Shown: positions 1,238 through 29,798 of the stretch, one piece after another
Layout of the letters: each line of letters opens with the position of its first letter
Numbering within the stretch: position 1 is the first letter of the stretch
Source of the DNA: an uncultured Actinomycetes bacterium
GTDB lineage: Bacteria; Actinomycetota; UBA4738; HRBIN12
DNA: 32,755 bases
Assembly: GCA_964655465.1 (NCBI GenBank)
Contig: CAZZND010000005.1
Span: 1-32,755 of the forward strand
Direction: 5' to 3'
Notes under the pieces: model-generated
The model's input: only the letters and a program-made list of their open reading frames with translations
Database searches by the model: none
Told to the model about the DNA's origin: nothing
Translations under genes and position numbers: made by a program

Positions 1238-1313
1238 GGCCAGGTAGCTCAGTTGGCAGAGCACGCGGCTGAAAACCGCGGTGTCGGCAGTTCGATTCTG
1301 CCCCTGGCCACCA
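1238..1313 (+). tRNA. tRNA-Phe (GAA)
   Basis: Acceptor stem GGCCAGG/CCTGGCC, D arm, anticodon stem CGCGG/CCGCG with loop CTGAAAA (GAA at 1271-1273), T-loop TTCGATT, encoded CCA at 1311-1313; 76 nt. Confidence 0.97.
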
Positions 1314-20038: not shown

Positions 20039-21324
20039 GGGGTGGCTCCTTCCAGCTCTACCGCGGCGGCGGCGATATCGGTCCGGTAGTGGGCGCCGTC
20101 GAAACGGATCCTCGAGACGCCGGCGTAGGCGCCTGCGCGCGCTTCGGCGAGCGTCGAGCCGGTGCCGGTGACGGCGAGCACCCGACCGCCGGCGGTGACG
20201 AGCTGGCCCGCGGCGTCGCGCGCCGTCCCCGCGTGGAACACGGTGACCCCGTCCAACGCCTCGGCGCCCTCGACCCCTTCGATCGGCACGCCCGTCTCGT
20301 ACGAGCCGGGGTAGCCGCCGCTCGCCATCACAACGGTCACCGCCGCGCCGTCGTCGAACCCGGCGTGGCCGGACTCGTAGGCGAGCCGCCCGGTCGCGCA
20401 CGCGTGCAGCAGCGTGCCGACGCGGTAGGGCATCCGCGGCATCAGCACCTCGGTCTCGGGATCGCCGAACCGGCAGTTGAACTCGAGCACCTTGGGACCG
20501 TCGGCGGTGAGCATCAGCCCCGCGAACAGCACCCCGCGGTACGGGCGGAGCTCGTCGTCCACATGGGCCATCACCGTGTCGAGGATGGTGGTGGCCATCG
20601 CTTGGTCGACGGCCGGCACCGGCGAGTACGCGCCCATGCCGCCGGTGTTGGGCCCGGTGTCGCCGTCGCCGACGCGCTTGGCGTCCTGCACGACGTCGAG
20701 CAGCACACATGAGCCTTTCCCGTCGGTCAGGACGAACACGCTGACCTCGGGGCCTTCGAGGACCTCCTCGATCACGATGGTCCGGCCGGCCTCCCCGAAG
20801 GCGCCGTCTGCGAGCGACGCGTGGATCGCGGCGACCGCCGTCGCGCGATCGAGGGCGACCGTGACCCCTTTGCCCGCAGCGAGGCCGTCTGCCTTGACGA
20901 CGGCCGAGCCGCCGAGCTCGTCGACGAACGCGACCGCCTTGTCGACGTCGTCGAACACGCCGCTCAGCGCCGTGGGGACCCCGCGGCGCGCCATGACCTC
21001 CTTCGCGAAGGCCTTCGAGCCTTCGATGCGTGCCGCCGCGGCCGACGGACCGAACACGTTGTGGCCGCGCTTGCGCAGCACGTCTGCGAGCCCCGCGACG
21101 AGCGGCGCCTCGGGTCCGACGACCGTGAGGTCGACCCCTTCGCGCTCGACCAGGTCAACGACGGCATCCACGTCGTCGGCGCGGACCTCGGGGTGGCACT
21201 CGGCCACCTGCGCGATCCCGGCGTTGCCGGGGGCCGCGAGCACGCACGTGACGGTGGGATCCTGTGCGAGACGCCAGCACAGCGCGTGCTCGCGGCCCCC
21301 ACCCCCCACGACGAGCACCTTCAC
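20035..21324 (-). CDS. purD: Phosphoribosylamine--glycine ligase
   Basis: GGGGREHAL, APGNAG, VGPEAPL, IEGSKAFAK, KADGLAAGKGV, GPNTGGMGAY, EFNCRFGDPE, GGRVL. Confidence 0.97.
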   Translation of the reverse strand: MKVLVVGGGGREHALCWRLAQDPTVTCVLAAPGNAGIAQVAECHPEVRADDVDAVVDLVEREGVDLTVVGPEAPLVAGLADVLRKRGHNVFGPSAAAARIEGSKAFAKEVMARRGVPTALSGVFDDVDKAVAFVDELGGSAVVKADGLAAGKGVTVALDRATAVAAIHASLADGAFGEAGRTIVIEEVLEGPEVSVFVLTDGKGSCVLLDVVQDAKRVGDGDTGPNTGGMGAYSPVPAVDQAMATTILDTVMAHVDDELRPYRGVLFAGLMLTADGPKVLEFNCRFGDPETEVLMPRMPYRVGTLLHACATGRLAYESGHAGFDDGAAVTVVMASGGYPGSYETGVPIEGVEGAEALDGVTVFHAGTARDAAGQLVTAGGRVLAVTGTGSTLAEARAGAYAGVSRIRFDGAHYRTDIAAAAVELEGATP

Positions 21325-22598
21325 GTCGTCACCGGGATGCTCTGCTCGCGGGCCGGGCCGACCCCGATGATCGTGACGGGGACGCCGCCCAGATCCTGGA
21401 GGAACTCGACGTAGCGCCGGGCCTCCTTCGGCAGATCCTCGAAGGTCCGCGCATCGCCCAGCTCCTGGTCCCAGCCGAGCAGCTCCTCGTAGACGGGCTC
21501 GGCCTGGTGGAACAGCGTCTGGTTGGGCGGCACGTCGTCCCAGACCTGCCCGCCAGCCCGGTAGCCCACGCACACCTTCAGTGTCTCGAACCCGCTCAGC
21601 ACGTCCAGCTTGGTCAGGCACAGCTCGGTCAGCCCGTTCAGCCGCGCGGCGTAGCGGAGCACCATCCCGTCGAACCAGCCGCAGCGGCGCTTGCGTCCGG
21701 TTACGGTCCCGAACTCGTGACCGCGCTCCCCGAGACGCACGCCGTCGTCGTCCAGCGCCTCGGTCGGGAACGGGCCGCTCCCCACCCGCGTCACGTACGC
21801 CTTCGTGATGCCGATGACCCGCTCAACGTACCGCGGTCCGATCCCCGCGCTCGCGAGCGCGTAGCCCGTCACCGGCGTCGAGGACGTCACGAACGGATAG
21901 GTGCCGTGATCGAGGTCGAGCATCGTGCCCTGTGCCCCCTCGAGCATGATGTGCTTGCCGGCGCGGAGCCCCTCGTCCAACAGCTTCGACGTGTCGGCCA
22001 CGAACGGCCGCAACCGCTCGGCGTAAGAGAGGTAGTCCTCGACGATCTTCTCGGCGCGGATCGCCATCCGGTTGTAGATCTTCGTGAGGATCTGGTTCTT
22101 CTCCCAGAGCACAACCTCGAGCTTCTCGCGCAGGATGTCCTCGTCGTAGAGGTCCTGCACGCGGATCCCGACGCGCGCCGCGCGGTCGGCGTAGGCCGGC
22201 CCGATCCCGCGCTTGGTGGTCCCGAGCGCGTTCTTGCCCAGGAACCGCTGCGTCACCTTCTCGAGCTCCAGATGGTAGGGCATGATCAGGTGCGCGTTCA
22301 GCGACAGGCGCAACCCCTCCGGATCGACGCCGGCCTCGCGGAGCTGCTCCATCTCTCGCAGCAGCACCGCCGGGTCCACGACCACCCCGTCGGCGATCAC
22401 GCTCGTGATGTGCGGGTACAGGATGCCCGAGGGGACGAGCTGGAGCTTCAGCAGCCGTCCCTCGGCGATGATCGTGTGGCCCGCGTTGTTCCCGCCCTGG
22501 TAGCGGACCACGAAGTCCATCCGGTCGGCGAGGTAGTCGACCGCCTTGCCCTTGCCCTCGTCCCCCCACTGGGTCCCGAGTACGACGGTGGCCGGCAT
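21321..22598 (-). CDS. purA: Adenylosuccinate synthetase
   Basis: QWGDEGKGK, GGNNAGHT, GTTKRGIGPAY, EGAQG, GTYPFVTSS, TRVGSGPFPTE, TGRKRRCGWFD. Confidence 0.98.
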   Translation of the reverse strand: MPATVVLGTQWGDEGKGKAVDYLADRMDFVVRYQGGNNAGHTIIAEGRLLKLQLVPSGILYPHITSVIADGVVVDPAVLLREMEQLREAGVDPEGLRLSLNAHLIMPYHLELEKVTQRFLGKNALGTTKRGIGPAYADRAARVGIRVQDLYDEDILREKLEVVLWEKNQILTKIYNRMAIRAEKIVEDYLSYAERLRPFVADTSKLLDEGLRAGKHIMLEGAQGTMLDLDHGTYPFVTSSTPVTGYALASAGIGPRYVERVIGITKAYVTRVGSGPFPTEALDDDGVRLGERGHEFGTVTGRKRRCGWFDGMVLRYAARLNGLTELCLTKLDVLSGFETLKVCVGYRAGGQVWDDVPPNQTLFHQAEPVYEELLGWDQELGDARTFEDLPKEARRYVEFLQDLGGVPVTIIGVGPAREQSIPVTT

Positions 22599-23200: not shown

Positions 23201-23263
23201 GCCGGCCGAGGGCGCGGCCCCCGCCTGCACCGATCACGCTCGCGCGAGTGAGAAAGTGTGCGG

Positions 23264-24298
23264 ATGCAGATCGACTGGGGCATCGTGCTGGCCGGCGCGT
23301 TCGTCGGGTTCACGGTCGGCCTGACCGGGATGGGTGGGGGCGCGCTCATGACCCCCATCCTATTGATCTTCTTCGATATCTCTCCGACCGCGGCCGTCTC
23401 GTCCGACCTGATCGCCGCCATGATCATGAAGCCGGTCGGCGGCGGCGTCCACATCCGCCGGAAGACCGTCCGGTGGGGCCTCGTCCGCTGGCTCTGCATC
23501 GGATCCATCCCCACGGCGTTCGCCGGCGTGTTCATCCTGAACTCCACGGGAGACAGCGAACAGGTCGAGCACATCACCACGATCTTCCTCGGCGTGACCC
23601 TGCTGCTGGCGGCGACCGCCATGGTCGTGAAAGCCTGGATCCAGGGACGTCGCACGGCCCGGGCCCGCCTCGAGGGGCGAGCCACCGGACCCACCGGACC
23701 GCTCATGGTCAAGATCATCCCGACCGTGCTGATCGGGATGGTCGGCGGCATGCTGGTGGGACTCACCAGCGTTGGCTCCGGCTCGATCGTGATCATCTGC
23801 CTGATGCTGCTCTACCCCGTGCTTCGTGGCGCCGAGCTCGTCGGCACCGACCTGGTCCAGGCCGTCCCCTTGGTCGCGGCCGCCGCGCTCGCCCACATCC
23901 TGGTCGGTGACTTCGAGCTCGCACTGACCACATCGATCCTGATCGGATCCATCCCGGCGGTCTGGGTGGGCGCCCGCCTGTCCTCCAGGGCGCCGGACGG
24001 CGTGATCCGACCGATCCTGGTCTTCGTGCTGACGGCATCGGCGCTGAAGCTTCTCGGGGTGCCGAACGGGGTCCTCGGCGGGGTGCTGCTCGCGATCGCC
24101 TTGATCGGCCTCCCGGCGTGGGGTGCGATCGACGCCGCGTCGCACCCCGAGCGACAGTGGGACGCGACGGGCGCGTCACGCTCGTCGTGGATCAAACGGC
24201 AAGCCTGGCTCGCTCCGGTGGGTCTGGGGTTCGCCTACGCCGTCGCGTACTTCGCGAAGATCCGGCCGATGCTGGTGCTCGCCGGGGAGAGGGGCTGA
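23264..24298 (+). CDS. TauE/SafE (TSUP) family sulfite exporter/anion permease with a C-terminal extension
   Basis: VGLTGMGGGALMTP, AVSSDL, VGLTSVGSGS, LVGTDLVQAVPL; many transmembrane helices. Confidence 0.9.
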   Translation: MQIDWGIVLAGAFVGFTVGLTGMGGGALMTPILLIFFDISPTAAVSSDLIAAMIMKPVGGGVHIRRKTVRWGLVRWLCIGSIPTAFAGVFILNSTGDSEQVEHITTIFLGVTLLLAATAMVVKAWIQGRRTARARLEGRATGPTGPLMVKIIPTVLIGMVGGMLVGLTSVGSGSIVIICLMLLYPVLRGAELVGTDLVQAVPLVAAAALAHILVGDFELALTTSILIGSIPAVWVGARLSSRAPDGVIRPILVFVLTASALKLLGVPNGVLGGVLLAIALIGLPAWGAIDAASHPERQWDATGASRSSWIKRQAWLAPVGLGFAYAVAYFAKIRPMLVLAGERG

Positions 24299-24299
24299 G

Positions 24300-24713
24300 A
24301 TGTTCGAGCGGATAGTGGTGGCGGTCGACGGCTCCCGGGAGGGAGGCAAGACGGTTCCCGCGGCGGTGGAGCTCGCGTCGCGTTTCGGATCGGAGGTCAC
24401 GATCGTCCACGTCCGAGAGCACACGAAGTACGAGGGAGAGGACGTCGACCTCGGCCCCGAGCAAGACGCCGATGCGATCGTCCGCGGCGCCGTCGACGCC
24501 TTCCGTGCAGCCGGTGTCACCGCCGAGGCCGTGATCCGCCGGGTATCGCCGGGCGATACTCCGGAGGAGATCGTGGCCGTCGCCGAACAGATCCGCGCCG
24601 GGCTGATCGTCATGGGCACCCGCGGGATGACCGAGTTCAAGAGCCTCGTACTGGGCGGCGTGGCCAACAAGGTCGTCCACCACGCGCACTGCCCGGTCCT
24701 GCTCGTCCGCTAG
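24300..24713 (+). CDS. Universal stress protein
   Basis: FERIVVAVDGS, LIVMGTRG, VLGGVANKVVHHAHCPVLLVR. Confidence 0.93.
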   Translation: MFERIVVAVDGSREGGKTVPAAVELASRFGSEVTIVHVREHTKYEGEDVDLGPEQDADAIVRGAVDAFRAAGVTAEAVIRRVSPGDTPEEIVAVAEQIRAGLIVMGTRGMTEFKSLVLGGVANKVVHHAHCPVLLVR

Positions 24714-24718
24714 GACGC

Positions 24719-24748
24719 TTGACCCGTCTCCAGACCCTCGGCTACCAT
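24719..24748 (+). promoter_or_regulatory. Housekeeping-sigma promoter TTGACC-N18-TACCAT
   Basis: -35 at 24719-24724 and -10 at 24743-24748, intergenic. Implies a TSS near 24755-24756. Confidence 0.65.
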
Positions 24749-24755
24749 CTCCCCT

Positions 24756-24826
24756 GCATAGCTGACCGGACGACCGGAGGCCGTGGCGCATCGCGCCGCG
24801 GCCTTTCCGCATCTCAGGGGAGCCAG
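24756..24826 (+). promoter_or_regulatory. Structured 5' leader with two mutually exclusive hairpins (candidate attenuator or protein-binding RNA switch)
   Basis: Hairpin A, GCT-GA-CCGG-ACGA-CCGG-A-GGC (24761-24781), overlaps hairpin B, GGAGGCCGTGGCGC-ATC-GCGCCGCGGCCTTTCC (24776-24808). Confidence 0.55.
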
Positions 24827-26026
24827 ATGGGGAAGCAGGCCGAAGAGCTCGAGCGCTACGAACAGCAGCTCGTCGAGGTGGACGGCGAGTTCTGCATCCC
24901 TCAAGAGGCTGGTCAGACCCGGCACTACATCGACCTGGGCCCGATCTTCGGCGAGGTCGAGCGTTCGCCGTGGTACCTCGCGAAGAAGCTCCTGTTCTTC
25001 ATCCCCGCCCTGTTCCTGTTCATCCTCGCCATCCAGCTCATGAAGGAGGGCGCGGCCGCGATCGGGCCGTCGATCGAAGGCGCGTTCCCGTTCGCCAACC
25101 CGCTTTCGACCCTGGGCACGGGCTGGCTCGGGGCCTACTTCGTGCTCTCCGGATCGCCGGTGGCTGCCACGTCGATCAGCCTGTTCGGCGCCGATGCGAT
25201 CACGAAGCTCGAGGCGCTGACGATGCTCTCGGGCTCCCGGCTCGGCGCGTCCTTCATCGTGCTGGTGACGGGGTTCCTCTACACGATCCGCCACAAGAAG
25301 CAGCGGTCCGAGGGCCTGAGCATCGGCATCCAGGCGATGACGATGACCGCCGTCCAGTACATCCCCGGCATGCTGATCGCGTTCGCGATCATGCAGGCGG
25401 GATGGCTCGACGGCGTCAACTGGCACGCGTCGGGCAAGCTCGAGTCGTTCTTCGCTCGCCTGTGGGGGCCGATCGTCGACCTCGCGGCGGACAACCTGCC
25501 TGGGTGGGCGCTGTTCCTCGCGGGCCTGGCGACGATCCTCGTGTCGTTCAACCTGCTCGACCGGGTGCTGCCGCACGTCGACTCGGACGCGACGGCATCC
25601 AAGCGCAGCTCGTGGCTGCGGCACCCGTGGACCATGTTCCTCCTCGGGTGCCTCGTGGCGACCTTGACGCTGTCGGTGTCGGTCGCGCTCACGGTGCTCG
25701 TGCCGCTCGCGGTCAAGGGCTACGTGAAGCGCGAGGAGGCGCTCCCCTACATCATGGGCGCGAACATCACGACGCTCGCCGACACGCTGGTGGTCGCGAT
25801 GCTGCAGCCCGGCCCCGGCGCCGCGCAGGTGGTCCTGGCCGAGGCGATCGGCGTCACGATCGTGTCGGTGTTCATCCTCGCCTTCCTCTACCGGCCCGTG
25901 AAGGACGGCGTGCTCGCGTTGGACGACTACCTCGTCACCAGCAACCTGCGGCTGGCCGGGTTCGTGGTCGTGCTGTTCTCGCTGCCGATCCTGTTCATCC
26001 TCTCGGGCCTGATCCTCAAGACGTGA
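24827..26026 (+). CDS. Na+/Pi-cotransporter (SLC34/NptA)-like membrane protein
   Basis: LFLFILAIQLMK, GWLGAYFVLSGS, GSRLG, ATLTLSVS and YIMGANITT (compare SLC34 IMGANIGT); two-repeat topology; GGGGAG Shine-Dalgarno. Confidence 0.75.
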   Translation: MGKQAEELERYEQQLVEVDGEFCIPQEAGQTRHYIDLGPIFGEVERSPWYLAKKLLFFIPALFLFILAIQLMKEGAAAIGPSIEGAFPFANPLSTLGTGWLGAYFVLSGSPVAATSISLFGADAITKLEALTMLSGSRLGASFIVLVTGFLYTIRHKKQRSEGLSIGIQAMTMTAVQYIPGMLIAFAIMQAGWLDGVNWHASGKLESFFARLWGPIVDLAADNLPGWALFLAGLATILVSFNLLDRVLPHVDSDATASKRSSWLRHPWTMFLLGCLVATLTLSVSVALTVLVPLAVKGYVKREEALPYIMGANITTLADTLVVAMLQPGPGAAQVVLAEAIGVTIVSVFILAFLYRPVKDGVLALDDYLVTSNLRLAGFVVVLFSLPILFILSGLILKT

Positions 26027-26056
26027 CCCCGGCGACCAGGGCGTAGCATCCCGGCC

Positions 26057-26245
26057 ATGGCAGGCGCCACCGAACCGACGCCCGATCAGCAGCTCGAGGC
26101 CTTGTCGCTCACGGACGAGGAGAAGGCCGTCATGGCGCGCGTCGCCGAGATCCTGCGGCGGGTCCACTTCGGCACGGTGGTGCTGGTGGTGCAGGACGGC
26201 AAGGTCGTGCAGATCGAGATGGCCGAGAAGTTCAGGTTGCGCTGA
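26057..26245 (+). CDS. YezD/DUF2292 (OscA-like) small protein
   Basis: ILRRVHFGTVVLVVQDGKVVQIEMAEKFRL fits the family pattern FGsV.ivvqDGkvvQIe..EK.R. TAGCAT 7 nt upstream of the ATG. Confidence 0.8.
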   Translation: MAGATEPTPDQQLEALSLTDEEKAVMARVAEILRRVHFGTVVLVVQDGKVVQIEMAEKFRLR

Positions 26246-27057
26246 TGGCGGACCCGGTCACGACGCTCGTGGCGGATCGGCCGGCACCGGCCGCACCCAA
26301 GCTCGCCGTGCGCGAGCTGACGGTGTCGCGCACGCAGGCTTCCGGCGAGGTGGTAACCGCGGCCCACGACGTCACGTTCGAGGTCGCGGCCGGCGAGTTC
26401 GTTTGTCTGCTCGGTCCGAGCGGCTGCGGCAAGACCTCCATCCTCAACGTGCTCGCCGGTCTGGACGCGCCGGCCGGCGGTGAGGCGCTTCTCGACGGCC
26501 GTCCGATCACGGGCCCGGGGCCGGACCGGGCGGTCCTGTTCCAGGAACCGGCGCTGTTCCCGTGGCTCTCGGTGCGAGCGAACGTGGGGTTGGCGCTGAA
26601 GCTCATCGGCGTCGGCGAGCCGGAGCGTTCGGAGCGTGCGGCGGCGTGGCTGGCGAACGTGGGGCTCACGGGATCCGCCGGTGCCCAACCGCACGAGCTG
26701 TCGGCCGGCATGCGCCAGCGCGCGGCGCTCGCGCGGGCGCTGGCGTGCGAGCCCGAGGTCCTGCTCGGCGATGAGCCGTTCGGTGCGCTGGATGCGCAGG
26801 CCCGCGAGCTGCTGCAGGACGAGGTCCAGCGCGCCTGGATCCGGTCGGAAGGACGCACCACGTTCCTCTTCGTGACCCACAACGTCCGCGAGGCGGTCCT
26901 GCTGGCCGATCGCGTCCTGGTGATGAGCGCGCAGCCCGGCCGGCTGCTCGAGGAGTTCCGGATCCACGCGCCTCGGCCGCGCGACCTGGACGACGTCCTG
27001 GTCACGCGGGTCGTCTCGGAAGTGCACGAGCTGCTCATGCGGCAGGTGACCCGGTGA
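26245..27057 (+). CDS. ABC transporter ATPase, SsuB/TauB/NrtD family
   Basis: Walker A GPSGCGKT, FQEPALFPWL, signature LSAGMRQR, DEPFGALD, FVTHNVREAV. TGATG coupling. Confidence 0.92.
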   Translation: MADPVTTLVADRPAPAAPKLAVRELTVSRTQASGEVVTAAHDVTFEVAAGEFVCLLGPSGCGKTSILNVLAGLDAPAGGEALLDGRPITGPGPDRAVLFQEPALFPWLSVRANVGLALKLIGVGEPERSERAAAWLANVGLTGSAGAQPHELSAGMRQRAALARALACEPEVLLGDEPFGALDAQARELLQDEVQRAWIRSEGRTTFLFVTHNVREAVLLADRVLVMSAQPGRLLEEFRIHAPRPRDLDDVLVTRVVSEVHELLMRQVTR

Positions 27058-27833
27058 CCGTCCGGCGGGTCGTGCGCGAGGTGACCCCTCCGCTGGTCGG
27101 GGTCGCCGGGGTGATCCTCGTGTGGGGGATCGTCGCCGCCGTCTGGGACTCGCCGTCCCTGCCGTCCCCGGCCGCGGTGTGGTCGGCGTTCGTGGACGGG
27201 CTCGGCGACGGGACCCTGCTCGAGGCCGCCGCGCTGACGCTGATCCGCCTGGCGTTCTCGTTCGGCGTCGCCGTCGTCATCGGCGTGCTGCTCGGGGTCG
27301 GCCTCGCGCTGAACGAGTTCGCGCGACGGGCCATCCGTCCGCTCGTCGTGGCGTTGCAGATCACCCCGTTCGTCGCCTGGGTCCCGCTCGCCGTGATCTG
27401 GTTCGGCGTAACGGAGCGCGCAGTGGTGTTCGTCGCGATCGTGGGCTCGTTCCCGGCCATGACCCTCGCGACCATCCAGGCCATCCGGCAGGTCCCGCCT
27501 CTGTACCGCCGGGCCGGGCGCACGCTCGGGGCGGACGGCTGGACCCTGTTCCGGCAGGTGGTGTTCCCCGCCGCGCTCCCCGGTGTGATGGCCGGCCTCC
27601 AGCAGGCGTGGGGGTTCGCGTGGAAGGCCCTGATGGCAGGAGAGCTGATCGTGGCCGCGGCGGGCGCGACGGGTCTCGGCCACCTGCTCGCTCGTCAGCA
27701 GGCCGACGTCCCGGCGCTCCTCGCGACCCTCGCCGTGATCCTCGTCATCGGGGTCGCGGCCGACTACCTGCTGTTCGGTCTGCTGGACCGGCGGATCCGC
27801 CGGCGCCGTGGCCTGATCGTCGAAGGGGCGTGA
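27054..27833 (+). CDS. ABC transporter permease, SsuC/TauC family
   Basis: LPSPAAVW, LQITPFVAWVPLAVIWFG, EAA-like RAGRTLGA, AWKALMAGEL. Confidence 0.9.
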   Translation: MTVRRVVREVTPPLVGVAGVILVWGIVAAVWDSPSLPSPAAVWSAFVDGLGDGTLLEAAALTLIRLAFSFGVAVVIGVLLGVGLALNEFARRAIRPLVVALQITPFVAWVPLAVIWFGVTERAVVFVAIVGSFPAMTLATIQAIRQVPPLYRRAGRTLGADGWTLFRQVVFPAALPGVMAGLQQAWGFAWKALMAGELIVAAAGATGLGHLLARQQADVPALLATLAVILVIGVAADYLLFGLLDRRIRRRRGLIVEGA

Positions 27834-27836
27834 GGG

Positions 27837-28481
27837 TCACGGCCGCTCGAACGGGTCCTGCGGCGTCAGCACCTCGACAGGCACGGGCGCGGCCGCGTCG
27901 CGGAACCGGTCGGCGTCCGACGGCGAGCCCACGACGAACCCGAAGTGCATCGGCACCGCGAGCTGCGGGCCGATCGCCGTGATCAGGCCTCCGGCCTCCT
28001 CGGCGTCCATCGTGTAGGTACCGCCGATCGGCACGAACGCGACGTCGGTCCGGACGTCCTCGAGCTCCGTCAGGTGATCGGTGTCGCCCGCGTGGTAGTA
28101 CCTGCGCCCTCCGAGCTCGAGCACGTACCCGACCCAGCGGTTCGCGCGAGGGTGCATCTCGAGCCGTTCCTCGCGCACGTTGTACGCGGGCACGGTCATG
28201 AATCGGACGCCGGCCACCTCGTAGGACTCGCCCGGCACCACCGGCATGACGTCACCGCCGAGCTCGGACGCAACGTCGTGCGGCGCCACCACCTTGGTCG
28301 CCGGCGTGGACAGCCGCGCGATCTCGTCGGGCTGGAAGTGGTCGAAGTGCGCGTGCGTGATCAAGATCAGGTCGGCCGGCGGCGCGTCGTCGGGGGTGCC
28401 CCAGGGGTCGATGTAGATCGTGCGTTCGTCGTCTCGCCAGCGCAGCGCCGACTGCCGGAACCACGTGATCCGCTCGAGCAT
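27837..28481 (-). CDS. Metallo-beta-lactamase-fold hydrolase
   Basis: YIDPW, THAHFDH, YHAGDTD, PIGGTYTM, PMH. GGAGGT Shine-Dalgarno. Confidence 0.92.
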   Translation of the reverse strand: MLERITWFRQSALRWRDDERTIYIDPWGTPDDAPPADLILITHAHFDHFQPDEIARLSTPATKVVAPHDVASELGGDVMPVVPGESYEVAGVRFMTVPAYNVREERLEMHPRANRWVGYVLELGGRRYYHAGDTDHLTELEDVRTDVAFVPIGGTYTMDAEEAGGLITAIGPQLAVPMHFGFVVGSPSDADRFRDAAAPVPVEVLTPQDPFERP

Positions 28482-28529
28482 GCCCGCACCTCCGGTCGTT
28501 CCGGGACCCGGGCGGTAGTCTCGCAGCTC

Positions 28530-29798
28530 GTGGCTACCCGCGAGCGCCGAGCCGGCTTCCGCGAAGCGGTCGACCTGCTCGGTCGCAACCGCGACTTCCG
28601 CAGGCTCTTCCTCGCCTCGGTCATCTCGCTCGGTGGCGACTGGTTCCTGTTCGTCGCCGTCGGCGCCCTCGTGCTCGACGCGACCGGCACCGCCATCTCC
28701 ATCGGCCTGCTGGTCTTGGCGCAGGACCTGCCCGTGTTCCTGGCCACCCCGTGGGCGGGCTGGCTGGTGGATCACATGGACCGGCGCCGGTTGATGATCG
28801 CGTGCGACGTCGCGCGCGTGGGCATCTGCGCCGCGTTCCTGCTGGTCGGCCCCGACAACCTGTGGCTCGCCTACGGGCTGCTGGCGGCTCTCGCGGTGTT
28901 CGCCGCCGTGTTCGACCCGGCGTCGTCCGCGGCGATGCCGAACGTCGTCGACCCCGAGGACCTGCCCGTGGCCAACGCCCTGGGTGGATCGTTGTGGGGC
29001 ACGATGCTCGCGGTAGGCGCCGCGGTCGGCGGCGTGGTCACGGCCGTGCTCGGCAACGACGCGGCGTTCGTGATCGACGCCGTCTCGTTCGCCGCCTCGG
29101 CCCTGCTCCTGGCTGGGGTCCGCCGTCCGTTCTCGGAGTCCGACATCGCCTCGCACGAGCGGGTGGGCGCGCTCGAGGCCGCTCGCGAGACGGTCGAGTA
29201 CGCGCGGCGCGATCACCGCGTGATGGCGCTGCTCAGCGTGAAGTTCGGGTTCGGGCTCGCCGGGGGCGTCCTCGCGTTGATCGTGGTGCTGGCTGAGTCC
29301 GTGTTCGACGCCGGGGCGGTCGGCTTCGGGATCCTGCTCGCCGCCCGCGGGGTGGGGGCGCTGATCGGTCCCTTCGTGGGCCACCGGCTCTCCGGACCGG
29401 GGCACCGGCGCCTGCTCCCCGTGATCGCGGGCGCCCTGGCGGTCTTCGGCCTGGGCTACGTGGCGGTCGGCGCCGCGCCCTCGCTCTGGCTCGCCGCGCT
29501 CGCGGTGATGGTGGCCCACCTCGGCGGCGGCGCCCAGTGGGTGCTTTCGTCGTTCGGGCTGCAGCGGATCGTCCCGGATCGGATCCGCGGACGGATCTTC
29601 TCGTTCGACTTCGCGCTGATCACCCTGACGTTCTCGGTCTCAGCCGTCGTCGCGTCGATCCTCGCCGACCAGATCGGCGCCCGGCAGGCCACGCAGATCG
29701 TGGGCGCCGTCGCGTTCGCGTGGGCGGCGGTCTGGTGGCTCCTGACGCGCCGCGTCCGCCACCGCCCGCTGTTCGACGATGCCGGAGACGCGGTCTAG
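28530..29798 (+). CDS. MFS transporter (DHA3/macrolide-efflux-like)
   Basis: NRDFRRLFLA..IS..GDW, motif A GWLVDHMDRRRLMIACD, VPDRIRGRIFS; about 12 transmembrane helices. Confidence 0.9.
   Translation: MATRERRAGFREAVDLLGRNRDFRRLFLASVISLGGDWFLFVAVGALVLDATGTAISIGLLVLAQDLPVFLATPWAGWLVDHMDRRRLMIACDVARVGICAAFLLVGPDNLWLAYGLLAALAVFAAVFDPASSAAMPNVVDPEDLPVANALGGSLWGTMLAVGAAVGGVVTAVLGNDAAFVIDAVSFAASALLLAGVRRPFSESDIASHERVGALEAARETVEYARRDHRVMALLSVKFGFGLAGGVLALIVVLAESVFDAGAVGFGILLAARGVGALIGPFVGHRLSGPGHRRLLPVIAGALAVFGLGYVAVGAAPSLWLAALAVMVAHLGGGAQWVLSSFGLQRIVPDRIRGRIFSFDFALITLTFSVSAVVASILADQIGARQATQIVGAVAFAWAAVWWLLTRRVRHRPLFDDAGDAV

Follow-up and report, generated by a model that had tools for sequence, protein, structure and literature searches.

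A conserved leader hairpin of actinobacterial sulfur-uptake operons, very likely an RNA switch element, and its probable pairing with a DUF2292/OscA-like miniprotein

Can a protein of little more than sixty residues control the RNA leader of the operon in which it is encoded? The literature searched presents DUF2292/OscA/YezD proteins (DUF, domain of unknown function) only as products of sulfur-starvation or chromate-response genes, with no mechanism assigned, and searches on DUF2292, YezD, oscA and riboswitch/sulfur found no RNA partner reported. According to a passage of PMC2996968, which cites Viti et al. 2009, inactivation of oscA results in Cr(VI) susceptibility, and chromate induces oscA-sbp. 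The stretch of DNA analysed here (the window, 32,755 nucleotides (nt) in length) belongs to a high-GC genome of an uncultured Actinomycetes bacterium (3.03 Mb in 324 contigs, 94% complete). In it, a gene for a DUF2292/OscA-like protein of 62 amino acids (aa) directly follows a transporter gene whose leader contains a short hairpin, designated hairpin A. An earlier reading, made from the sequence alone, had proposed that the two form an undescribed protein-RNA system. The results presented below show that hairpin A is very likely a functional RNA switch element of sulfur-uptake operons. Hairpin A and DUF2292 are probably an undescribed regulatory pair, because the hairpin is almost restricted to genomes that contain DUF2292 and usually adjoins that gene.

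The elements in question are located as follows; the promoter, hairpin A, the overlapping GC hairpin and the 62-aa DUF2292 gene were all found at the positions given for them in the sequence-only reading.

24719-24748, plus strand: promoter with the -35 box TTGACC at 24719-24724, an 18-nt spacer and the -10 box TACCAT at 24743-24748
24761-24781, plus strand: hairpin A, the conserved sensor unit, GCU-GA-CCGG-[ACGA]-CCGG-A-GGC
24778-24808, plus strand: GC-rich terminator-like hairpin, stem 24779-24789 / 24793-24803, loop AUC, followed by UUUCC
24817-24822, plus strand: Shine-Dalgarno sequence GGGGAG, with the start codon ATG at 24827-24829 (orthologues align from residue 1-6)
26057-26245, plus strand: DUF2292/OscA-like protein, 62 aa, candidate trans-acting partner of hairpin A (PF10055, E 6.4e-15)

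The promoter sequence TTGACC-N18-TACCAT is the sole sigma-70-like site between 23000 and 28500 (one found, compared to 0.2 expected from shuffled sequences), and in relatives a TTGAC-N17-19-TAnnnT box is present at the equivalent position. Transcription is inferred to start near 24755-24757, giving a leader of about 70 nt. The open reading frame start at 24719 used in the sequence-only reading is merely the first in-frame TTG, and the gene starts with the ATG at 24827. Hairpin A consists of an outer stem of three pairs (G61-C81, C62-G80 and U63-G79, numbered by the last two digits of the positions 247xx), an asymmetric internal loop (G64 A65 / A78) and an inner stem of four pairs (C66-G77, C67-G76, G68-C75 and G69-C74) closing the loop ACGA. 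The GC hairpin that follows has a stem of 11 base pairs (bp), or 12 when A24778-U24804 is counted.

The nucleotides G24779-C24781 are used both by the outer stem of hairpin A and by the three lowest G-C pairs of the GC hairpin, so that the full forms of the two structures are mutually exclusive, as had been claimed on the basis of their overlap. In agreement with this, the minimum free energy structure of the leader (-41.2 kcal/mol) contains the inner stem of hairpin A together with the full GC hairpin, and forcing the complete hairpin A gives -34.6 kcal/mol, at a cost of 6.6 kcal/mol and of four bp from the base of the terminator. The leader folds better than shuffled sequences (z = -3.77; none of 200 shuffles was as good). 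A simple scan for a terminator consensus made no call on the GC hairpin, because just three U follow it; with respect to the features of a terminator, an 11-12-bp GC stem and UUU are present in the window, and many related leaders have UUUUU.

For the analysis of conservation, two covariance models were built, one of hairpin plus terminator from 21 sequences (R1) and one of hairpin A alone (R2). R1 matches the window at 24759-24808 with 63.1 bits, and R2 matches it at 24758-24784 with 36.8 bits, which is the sole strong match in its own genome. Transporter orthologues from the same genus share the leader, with CCAG/CUGG in place of CCGG/CCGG, and the pattern CTGACCRG-N4-5-CYGGAGGC was identified 22 times in 20 of the 38 genomes of the genus, compared to a single match for the reversed control. 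Of 151 genomes that were sampled from the order, 79 have an R1 match at E <= 0.01, with up to seven copies per genome, some of them in tandem.

The 92 distinct hairpins collected define the consensus 5'-NNY-GA-CCRG-loop-CYGG-A-GN'N'-3'. Invariant in all of them are G7, A8, C9, C10 and G12 on the 5' side and C17, G19, G20, A21 and G22 on the 3' side, in the numbering of the 27-nt row of the window. The inner variable pair (columns 11-19) is G-C in 47 hairpins, A-U in 43 and G-U in two. For the outer stem, the first pair is G-C in 80, A-U in seven and C-G in five, the second is C-G in 66, U-A in 12, U-G in six, G-C in five and A-U in three, and the pair adjoining the internal loop is U-G in 70 and C-G in 22. 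Since these hairpins had been selected for outer complementarity, a recount was made without that filter, and all three outer pairs were present in 68 of 97 distinct core matches with a complementary inner variable pair, compared to about 5% expected by chance. The loop is mostly ACNA and varies in sequence and length (ACGA in 15 hairpins, ACCA in 12, ACAA in ten, ACAU in seven, and many others of 4-6 nt). The 86 leaders listed all have the motif ahead of a gene in sense orientation, a few nt beyond the presumed start of transcription; the commonest spacing between the -10 box and the GACC core is 13 nt. An RNA element rather than a DNA operator is indicated by the conserved 2x1 asymmetry of the internal loop, by the adjoining wobble pair, by the variability of the terminal loop and by a location that is always in sense orientation and shortly after the transcription start.

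Searches against Rfam 15 identified only a tRNA in the whole window, a single chance match of E 6.9 outside the hairpin in the leader region 24650-24900, nothing at the gathering score for 12 related loci and nothing at E <= 10 for a tandem leader of the second type described below. Hairpin A is thus without a match to a known family in Rfam 15 for the window leader and its relatives. With more than 90 distinct sequences and covariation in hand, it is a candidate RNA family missing from that database.

A strict pattern scan of all species genomes yielded at least 120 loci. About 88 of those listed, from Streptomyces, Proteobacteria and other groups, are in-frame coding look-alikes (CTGACCGGC...) and were dropped as chance matches; DUF2292 is not nearby, and their R1 scores are weak or absent. 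Strong R1 scores among the matches listed were obtained only for records of uncultured Actinomycetota and for one contig labelled Chloroflexota and one labelled Desulfuromonadaceae. Five genomes reached via chance-match loci (Oscillospiraceae and others) contain no DUF2292. Two further matches with R1 scores of 40 and 36.7 bits, L123 (G120:C170) and L124 (G094:C240), were rejected, since their inner stem is broken (CUGCUGACCUGACCACCGGAGGGCGGCGACC...) and they coincide with the 3' terminus of a coding region; they are probably ordinary terminators resembling the motif. Weak R1 matches of E 0.001-0.01 in genomes without DUF2292 were also dropped, as they have no R2 support. A search at the class level added no further families, as those sampled for the class are identical to those of the order.

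Two architectures of the leader were identified, which differ in the structure that competes with hairpin A. In type 1, to which the window belongs, the 3' strand of the outer stem forms the base of the terminator-like hairpin. This overlap was also seen in 21 aligned relatives; the upper stem of the terminator-like hairpin covaries freely, at least three T follow it in 64 of 82 related leaders, and most leaders of this type hold one hairpin A. In type 2, which precedes sulfate-binding-protein genes (TIGR00971, 227 bits compared to a cut-off of 155.5), the outer stem of hairpin A is longer (UCG-NNY...GN'N'-CGA), and two copies about 30 nt apart are often present. Here, a downstream segment, at the end of which lies the Shine-Dalgarno sequence (...CGAAAGGAG), pairs in the minimum free energy structure with CCUUUCG and with the 5' half of the gene-proximal hairpin that follows CCUUUCG. 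This helix was present in the unconstrained fold of eight of ten type-2 leaders, the exceptions being L245 and L259. Since the complete hairpin A excludes the OFF structure in both types, a stabiliser of hairpin A should turn the genes on, and the complete hairpin would represent the ON state on both platforms. The covarying stems and the competing folds bear out the earlier claim of a conserved RNA switch element with mutually exclusive structures.

Three loci of the order deviate from these arrangements. In L054 (G024:C1:137445-137502, minus strand), a full hairpin A and a GC hairpin lie between the end of an ABC (ATP-binding cassette) permease gene and a gene for a relative of Na/Pi cotransporters (NaPi-like); on the operon strand the sequence is terminator-like, with a U tract that is the complement of the hairpin A loop, and it could be a relic in inverted position or a terminator that works in both directions. 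In L007 and L009 (G021:C4 and G024:C1), the NaPi-like gene is located after, not ahead of, the DUF2292-ABC genes and has its own leader without hairpin A. A different conserved structure (CAACGGCCGACCUGC...GCAGAUCGGGCUCCCCCGUUG) is present about 90 nt upstream of the NaPi-like gene in these two loci.

The distribution of hairpin A follows that of DUF2292. When R2 matches at E <= 1e-3 were compared with a PF10055 search in the same 151 genomes of the order, 78 genomes contained both, two the hairpin only, one DUF2292 only and 70 neither. The two hairpin-only genomes are incomplete: G176, in which the hairpin lies at the edge of a contig, is 87% complete, and G078 is 68% complete. The DUF2292-only genome is the unpublished G109. 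None of 18 weaker R2 matches lies in a genome with DUF2292. At least six genera (g1, g23, g25, g26, g29 and g31) are polymorphic, and within them hairpin and DUF2292 track each other genome by genome. The tallies of this study include genomes flagged as unpublished (G017, G049, G059, G085, G121, G041, G167, G109, G067, G068, G194, G393 and G495). In the comparison above, G041, G059, G121 and G167 count as containing both, which leaves 74 without them, G109 as DUF2292 only, and G049, G067 and G068 as neither; G085 also counts as neither, provided that the R1 and R2 searches drew the same genomes. The alignments, models and quoted sequences exclude unpublished genomes, save for the upstream stretches of L016 (G017) and L027 (G049).

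At the level of single loci, DUF2292 was present within the fetched flanks in 57 of the 86 strong instances of hairpin A and, by coordinates, in five more. The gene was identified in three placements: inside the regulated operon, divergent to it, or as a separate gene directly upstream of the hairpin. In the last case, it has its own promoter, is near-leaderless and ends 50-110 nt before a hairpin that controls the next operon; such a solitary gene directly ahead of the hairpin was present in 12 of the 86 actinobacterial instances. Control of the neighbour of DUF2292, rather than of DUF2292 itself, would resemble the usual layout of regulator and target. In the solitary upstream genes of L072-L075 and L058, the start lies 7-11 nt past a TAnnnT -10 box, and their mRNAs therefore appear to be leaderless or nearly so. 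Conversely, metagenomic DUF2292 loci contained the hairpin in 49 of 80 cases, and in 29 of 35 when counting was limited to loci with 1400 nt or more of upstream flank. The sequence-only reading had mentioned similar CTGACCGG-N4-CCGGAGGC sequences near DUF2292 genes, which is borne out, and its claim of a specific coupling is upheld by the co-occurrence (78/2/1/70), by this adjacency and by the recurrence of the pair in a second phylum.

Genomes that lack DUF2292 can retain the presumed target genes. Seven genomes, all of family f7, have an sbp orthologue and no DUF2292, and may reflect a single evolutionary event, as they belong to one family. The four of these that were inspected have no hairpin A and an AT-rich, operator-like leader instead. 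An AT-rich, partly palindromic sequence follows the -10 box in the sbp leaders L328, L329, L330 and L333 of DUF2292-negative genomes. In L021, a translated sequence just upstream of the NaPi-like gene resembles an Rrf2-type regulator by eye. These observations suggest that a DNA-binding regulator replaces the RNA system there. In L005 (G027:C50), from the same genus as the window and without a DUF2292 match, the leader of the NaPi-like gene has kept the promoter and the terminator hairpin, but hairpin A has a destroyed inner stem (CUGACCGACGUUCAGGGGUCG), as if the sensor had decayed once its partner was gone.

The pair is also present outside the class of the window. A sample of the phylum contained DUF2292 in eight of 151 genomes, six of the window's class and two of another actinobacterial family; both of the latter have hairpin A (GUC-GA-CCGG-...-CCGG-A-GAC) about 70 nt downstream of DUF2292. 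Among 151 sampled genomes of Gammaproteobacteria, five contain DUF2292. One of these loci, oscA-sbp of Pseudomonas, is without the hairpin, and the two other published ones have hairpin A 45-100 nt after DUF2292; in G369 the next gene is Porin_O_P, the one gammaproteobacterial downstream gene assigned by Pfam, and in G473 the first open reading frame downstream has no Pfam match. In the order to which one of these genomes belongs, four of nine genomes contain DUF2292, and in all four hairpin A directly follows the gene and is the best R2 match genome-wide, with a second tandem copy in three; the five DUF2292-negative genomes of this order gave no R2 match better than E 0.08. DUF2292 is a solitary gene directly ahead of the hairpin in the gammaproteobacterial loci, and no other gene was seen beside the hairpin in actinobacterial as well as gammaproteobacterial loci.

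The remaining genes of the operon and its surroundings in the window are as follows.

23258-24298, plus strand: TauE/SafE-family permease (family search), in a unit separate from the operon and ahead of its promoter
24300-24713, plus strand: universal stress protein (family search), in the same separate unit
24827-26026, plus strand: 399-aa membrane transporter, a distant relative of Na/Pi cotransporters (PF02690, weak, 37.2 bits)
26245-27057, plus strand: ABC ATP-binding protein of the NitT/TauT type, SaoA/TauB/SsuB-like (family searches)
27054-27833, plus strand: ABC permease, SaoP/SsuC/TauC-like (family searches)
27837-29519, strand opposite to the operon: next long open reading frame (from the list of open reading frames)

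The NCBIfam matches of the 399-aa transporter are far under their cut-offs, and its context points to an oxyanion such as sulfate as the substrate. The stop codon TGA of the DUF2292 gene overlaps the ATG of the ABC ATPase gene at 26242-26247 (CGCTGATGG), which suggests coupled translation of the two. A substrate-binding-protein gene is missing from the window operon and likewise from the other DUF2292-ABC operons. The pair of TauE and universal stress protein genes is also located ahead of the motif in L033, L034, L043, L047 and L049. Unrelated to the subject of this paper are a tRNA gene at 1238-1310 (plus strand, 69 bits in Rfam) and an open reading frame at 21321-22598 (minus strand), whose translation resembles adenylosuccinate synthetase by eye.

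For the definition of the regulon, genes were called downstream of the 86 strong matches and clustered. The order found in the window, NaPi-like gene, DUF2292, ABC ATPase and permease, follows 22 leaders, and DUF2292, ATPase and permease follow about 17; TauE, alone or succeeded by DUF2292-ABC, has 15 cluster members with second genes counted, and an SsuA-family binding protein with ABC genes follows 14 leaders. A further architecture consists of a sulfate-binding protein and CysT/W-like permeases, and single cases are a sulfite-oxidase-like molybdoenzyme, a class-V aminotransferase and a small PRC-barrel protein. As judged from these gene assignments, the genes downstream of hairpin A constitute a sulfur-acquisition regulon. 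The element had originally been tied to the operon of the window; it is present there, but it is not special to it, being regulon-wide, with no DUF2292 near some of the copies. In six loci of family f6 (L076, L083, L091, L092, L095 and L099), the motif lies ahead of a lone TauE-family gene with no DUF2292 nearby, and in five of them TauE is followed by what appear, by eye from the first residues, to be rplM and/or rpsI.

The DUF2292 protein of the window matches PF10055 with 54.9 bits (cut-off 22), its only Pfam match. It is not an OscA equivalog, since its score for NF033785 (OscA) is 33.5 bits, under the cut-off of 85. The hairpin-associated proteins have a highly conserved core, ...L(S/T)(D/E)EE+xVLAKVAxI(V/L)R+IxFGTVVLV(I/V)QDGKVVQIEMAEKFRLR, and variable, acidic N-termini. 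An AlphaFold2 model consists of a helix (residues 20-35) packed on a beta-hairpin (40-56), with a mean predicted local distance difference test (pLDDT) score of 78, and a search of a protein atlas returned DUF2292 clusters only. A model of the homodimer, in which strands 39-46 pair between the chains, scored 0.53 compared to 0.00 for the best control, with contacts agreeing across runs and a partner pLDDT of at least 77; it thereby passed the mark applied for dimers, which 20 of 30 proteins solved as homo-pairs had reached, compared to one of 23 solved as single chains. The modelling supports the formation of a DUF2292 dimer.

The best-supported reading of these data, given slightly better than an even chance, is that the DUF2292/OscA-like miniprotein is the effector that binds hairpin A. 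It is favoured by comparative evidence, because the hairpin is gained and lost in step with the protein gene, with the target genes persisting, because the gene sits, like that of a regulator, beside and yet outside the controlled transcript, and because the pairing recurs in a second phylum, where the one downstream gene assigned by Pfam is a porin. In addition, the helices are conserved in sequence and the loop is free, and there is a close analogy to antitermination by BglG and LicT on RAT (ribonucleic antiterminator) hairpins.

A number of observations weigh against this assignment. The terminator-like hairpin of the window is followed by three U only. Related genomes are not independent, so kinship inflates the support given by the co-occurrence table, and part of the hairpin set was gathered around DUF2292 genes, a bias of which the genome-wide R2 searches are free. 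In 24 of the 86 strong instances DUF2292 is not nearby, which fits a trans-acting factor and a riboswitch equally. At the one Pseudomonas oscA-sbp locus inspected, no hairpin A was found; the core of Pseudomonas OscA is conserved with that of the hairpin-associated proteins (36% identity), and the ancestral role of DUF2292 may therefore not be RNA binding. The window protein is slightly acidic, with a net charge of about -2 by residue count and only a short basic C-terminus, EKFRLR, and the charge does not favour RNA binding. A Foldseek search of the model against the PDB found nothing at E <= 0.001 (best row E 1.2), and no PDB relative was identified by sequence, the only hit being a chance match of E 0.024 to a de novo TIM barrel.

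Part of these points would fit a different reading, in which hairpin A is a very small and self-sufficient riboswitch, for example for a metabolite of sulfur status, and DUF2292 is merely a core member or neighbour of the regulon, as oscA is by sbp in Pseudomonas. About 13 invariant nucleotides surround the internal loop, one sensor carries two different expression platforms, and tandem copies occur; the instances without DUF2292 nearby, the Pseudomonas locus and the acidic protein without a match to an RNA-binding fold point in the same direction. Such a riboswitch leaves unexplained why hairpins are lost at all loci in genomes lacking DUF2292 though their targets remain, why DUF2292 is frequently placed beside but outside the regulated transcript, and why the pairing recurs in a second phylum, with a porin as the one downstream gene assigned by Pfam. 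Helices conserved in sequence with a loop that varies in sequence and length are also more typical of recognition by a protein, and the riboswitch is considered unlikely. If a protein is involved, it might be a different RNA-binding protein, or DUF2292 might act only jointly with its ABC ATPase, with DUF2292 being a transporter accessory that travels with the regulon. The overlap of the DUF2292 stop with the ATPase start, which would allow coupled translation and perhaps a complex, and the lack of a binding-protein gene in the DUF2292-ABC operons are in line with this. It is rated as distinctly improbable, given that no other gene was seen beside the hairpin in both phyla and that DUF2292 stands alone, directly ahead of the hairpin, in the gammaproteobacterial loci and in the 12 actinobacterial instances.

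The inverted repeat could finally function as DNA, namely as the operator of a transcription factor that binds as a dimer and might be DUF2292 itself, with the hairpin being irrelevant as RNA. Its position at about +3 to +25 of the promoter would be typical for a repressor site, CCGG-N4-CCGG is palindromic, and DUF2292 is modelled as a dimer joined via beta strands. In duplex DNA, however, the conserved 2x1 asymmetry (GA versus A) and the adjoining U-G pair (70 of 92) would make no sense; the spacer has no fixed length (4-6 nt), all copies are in sense orientation, and the flanks are built for alternative RNA helices with the terminator or the Shine-Dalgarno sequence. A DNA operator is accordingly regarded as very improbable.

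With DUF2292 as the preferred effector, the leader is proposed to be a two-state RNA switch centred on hairpin A. By default, the three outer pairs of hairpin A would yield to the GC-rich terminator hairpin, which requires the same GGC, and transcription would halt before the transporter-DUF2292-ABC operon (OFF). A factor holding the complete hairpin A would deprive the terminator of its base near the U tract and allow read-through by RNA polymerase (ON). In the second architecture, hairpin A would compete with the helix that buries the Shine-Dalgarno sequence, and an equal logic would apply to translation. Most likely, this factor would be the DUF2292/OscA-like miniprotein, probably in dimeric form, which would then act as antiterminator and translation activator of sulfur-acquisition operons in a manner like that of BglG and LicT on RAT hairpins, and the signal would presumably be sulfur limitation.

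A wider proposal is put forward tentatively, its chances being judged as somewhat below even. DUF2292/OscA/YezD might constitute a new family of miniature RNA-binding regulators, in which a dimer would clamp NNY-GA-CCRG-loop-CYGG-A-GNN and switch sulfur-uptake operons on by antitermination or by release of the ribosome-binding site, gated by the translationally coupled ABC transporter, in a circuit shared by Actinomycetota and some Gammaproteobacteria. If true, this would be a transporter-sensing protein-RNA circuit and would provide a function for a widespread DUF. The control of sulfur starvation is mainly known via DNA-binding regulators, like CysB, CymR and SsuR, and via S-adenosylmethionine riboswitches. 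The element described here would be an RNA-level switch dedicated to the uptake of sulfate and sulfonates, common in a large uncultured class of soil actinobacteria and also present in some Gammaproteobacteria, and the reading offers a first concrete, testable function for DUF2292/OscA/YezD. Binding and reporter tests would be simple, since the element is small, its invariant positions are clear and it offers two read-outs; it could also be of use as a compact regulatory part.

Among known systems, the antiterminators BglG, SacY and LicT stabilise the RAT hairpin by a small beta-sheet dimer and consist of a CAT RNA-binding domain and PRD domains. As in these systems, the leader analysed here begins with a short hairpin that has an asymmetric internal loop, and the 3' strand of this hairpin overlaps the 5' strand of a terminator-like stem. 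Binding of a dimer would likewise permit read-through, the regulator can be encoded downstream of the terminator that is relieved, and a link to the cognate transporter is plausible. In contrast, DUF2292 proteins have 50-80 aa and match PF10055 only, without CAT or PRD domains; hairpin A differs from RAT in sequence and shape, the regulon comprises sulfur uptake instead of sugars, and a version that sequesters the Shine-Dalgarno sequence exists.

The ANTAR regulators AmiR, NasR and EutV, which are known also in Actinobacteria, recognise dual-hairpin RNA targets with hexaloops containing a conserved A and G. Small tandem leader hairpins, of which the gene-proximal one competes with a terminator, are a common feature, but in hairpin A the loop is variable (4-6 nt) and the stems and the internal loop are conserved, and type-1 leaders mostly have a single hairpin. 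HutP of the Bacillus subtilis hut operon is hexameric, is activated by histidine and binds UAG repeats. Its small gene lies directly upstream of a terminator/antiterminator region, which compares to the order of DUF2292, hairpin A and the binding-protein and ABC genes, whereas DUF2292 is not known to be related to HutP in sequence or fold.

Among metabolite sensors, the guanidine-II (mini-ykkC) riboswitch consists of two hairpins with near-invariant ACGR tetraloops and is located ahead of genes for guanidine exporters or carboxylases. Hairpin A resembles it in its size of about 20 nt, in its tandem copies and in the loop ACGA closed by G-C in the window. This identity was rejected, as the downstream genes are sulfur-uptake transporters, no Rfam match was obtained and the hairpin is mostly single in type-1 leaders; the likeness of the loop does not hold because it is not conserved as ACGR. 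As in terminator-embedded aptamers (HMP-PP/thiS), the sensor overlaps the stem of the terminator. The nearest comparison on the side of the protein is Pseudomonas OscA, which belongs to the same PF10055 family and whose gene also lies beside genes for the uptake of sulfate and sulfonates; it differs in that the window protein scores under the NF033785 cut-off and in that the inspected oscA-sbp locus is without the hairpin that accompanies DUF2292 in the genomes described here.

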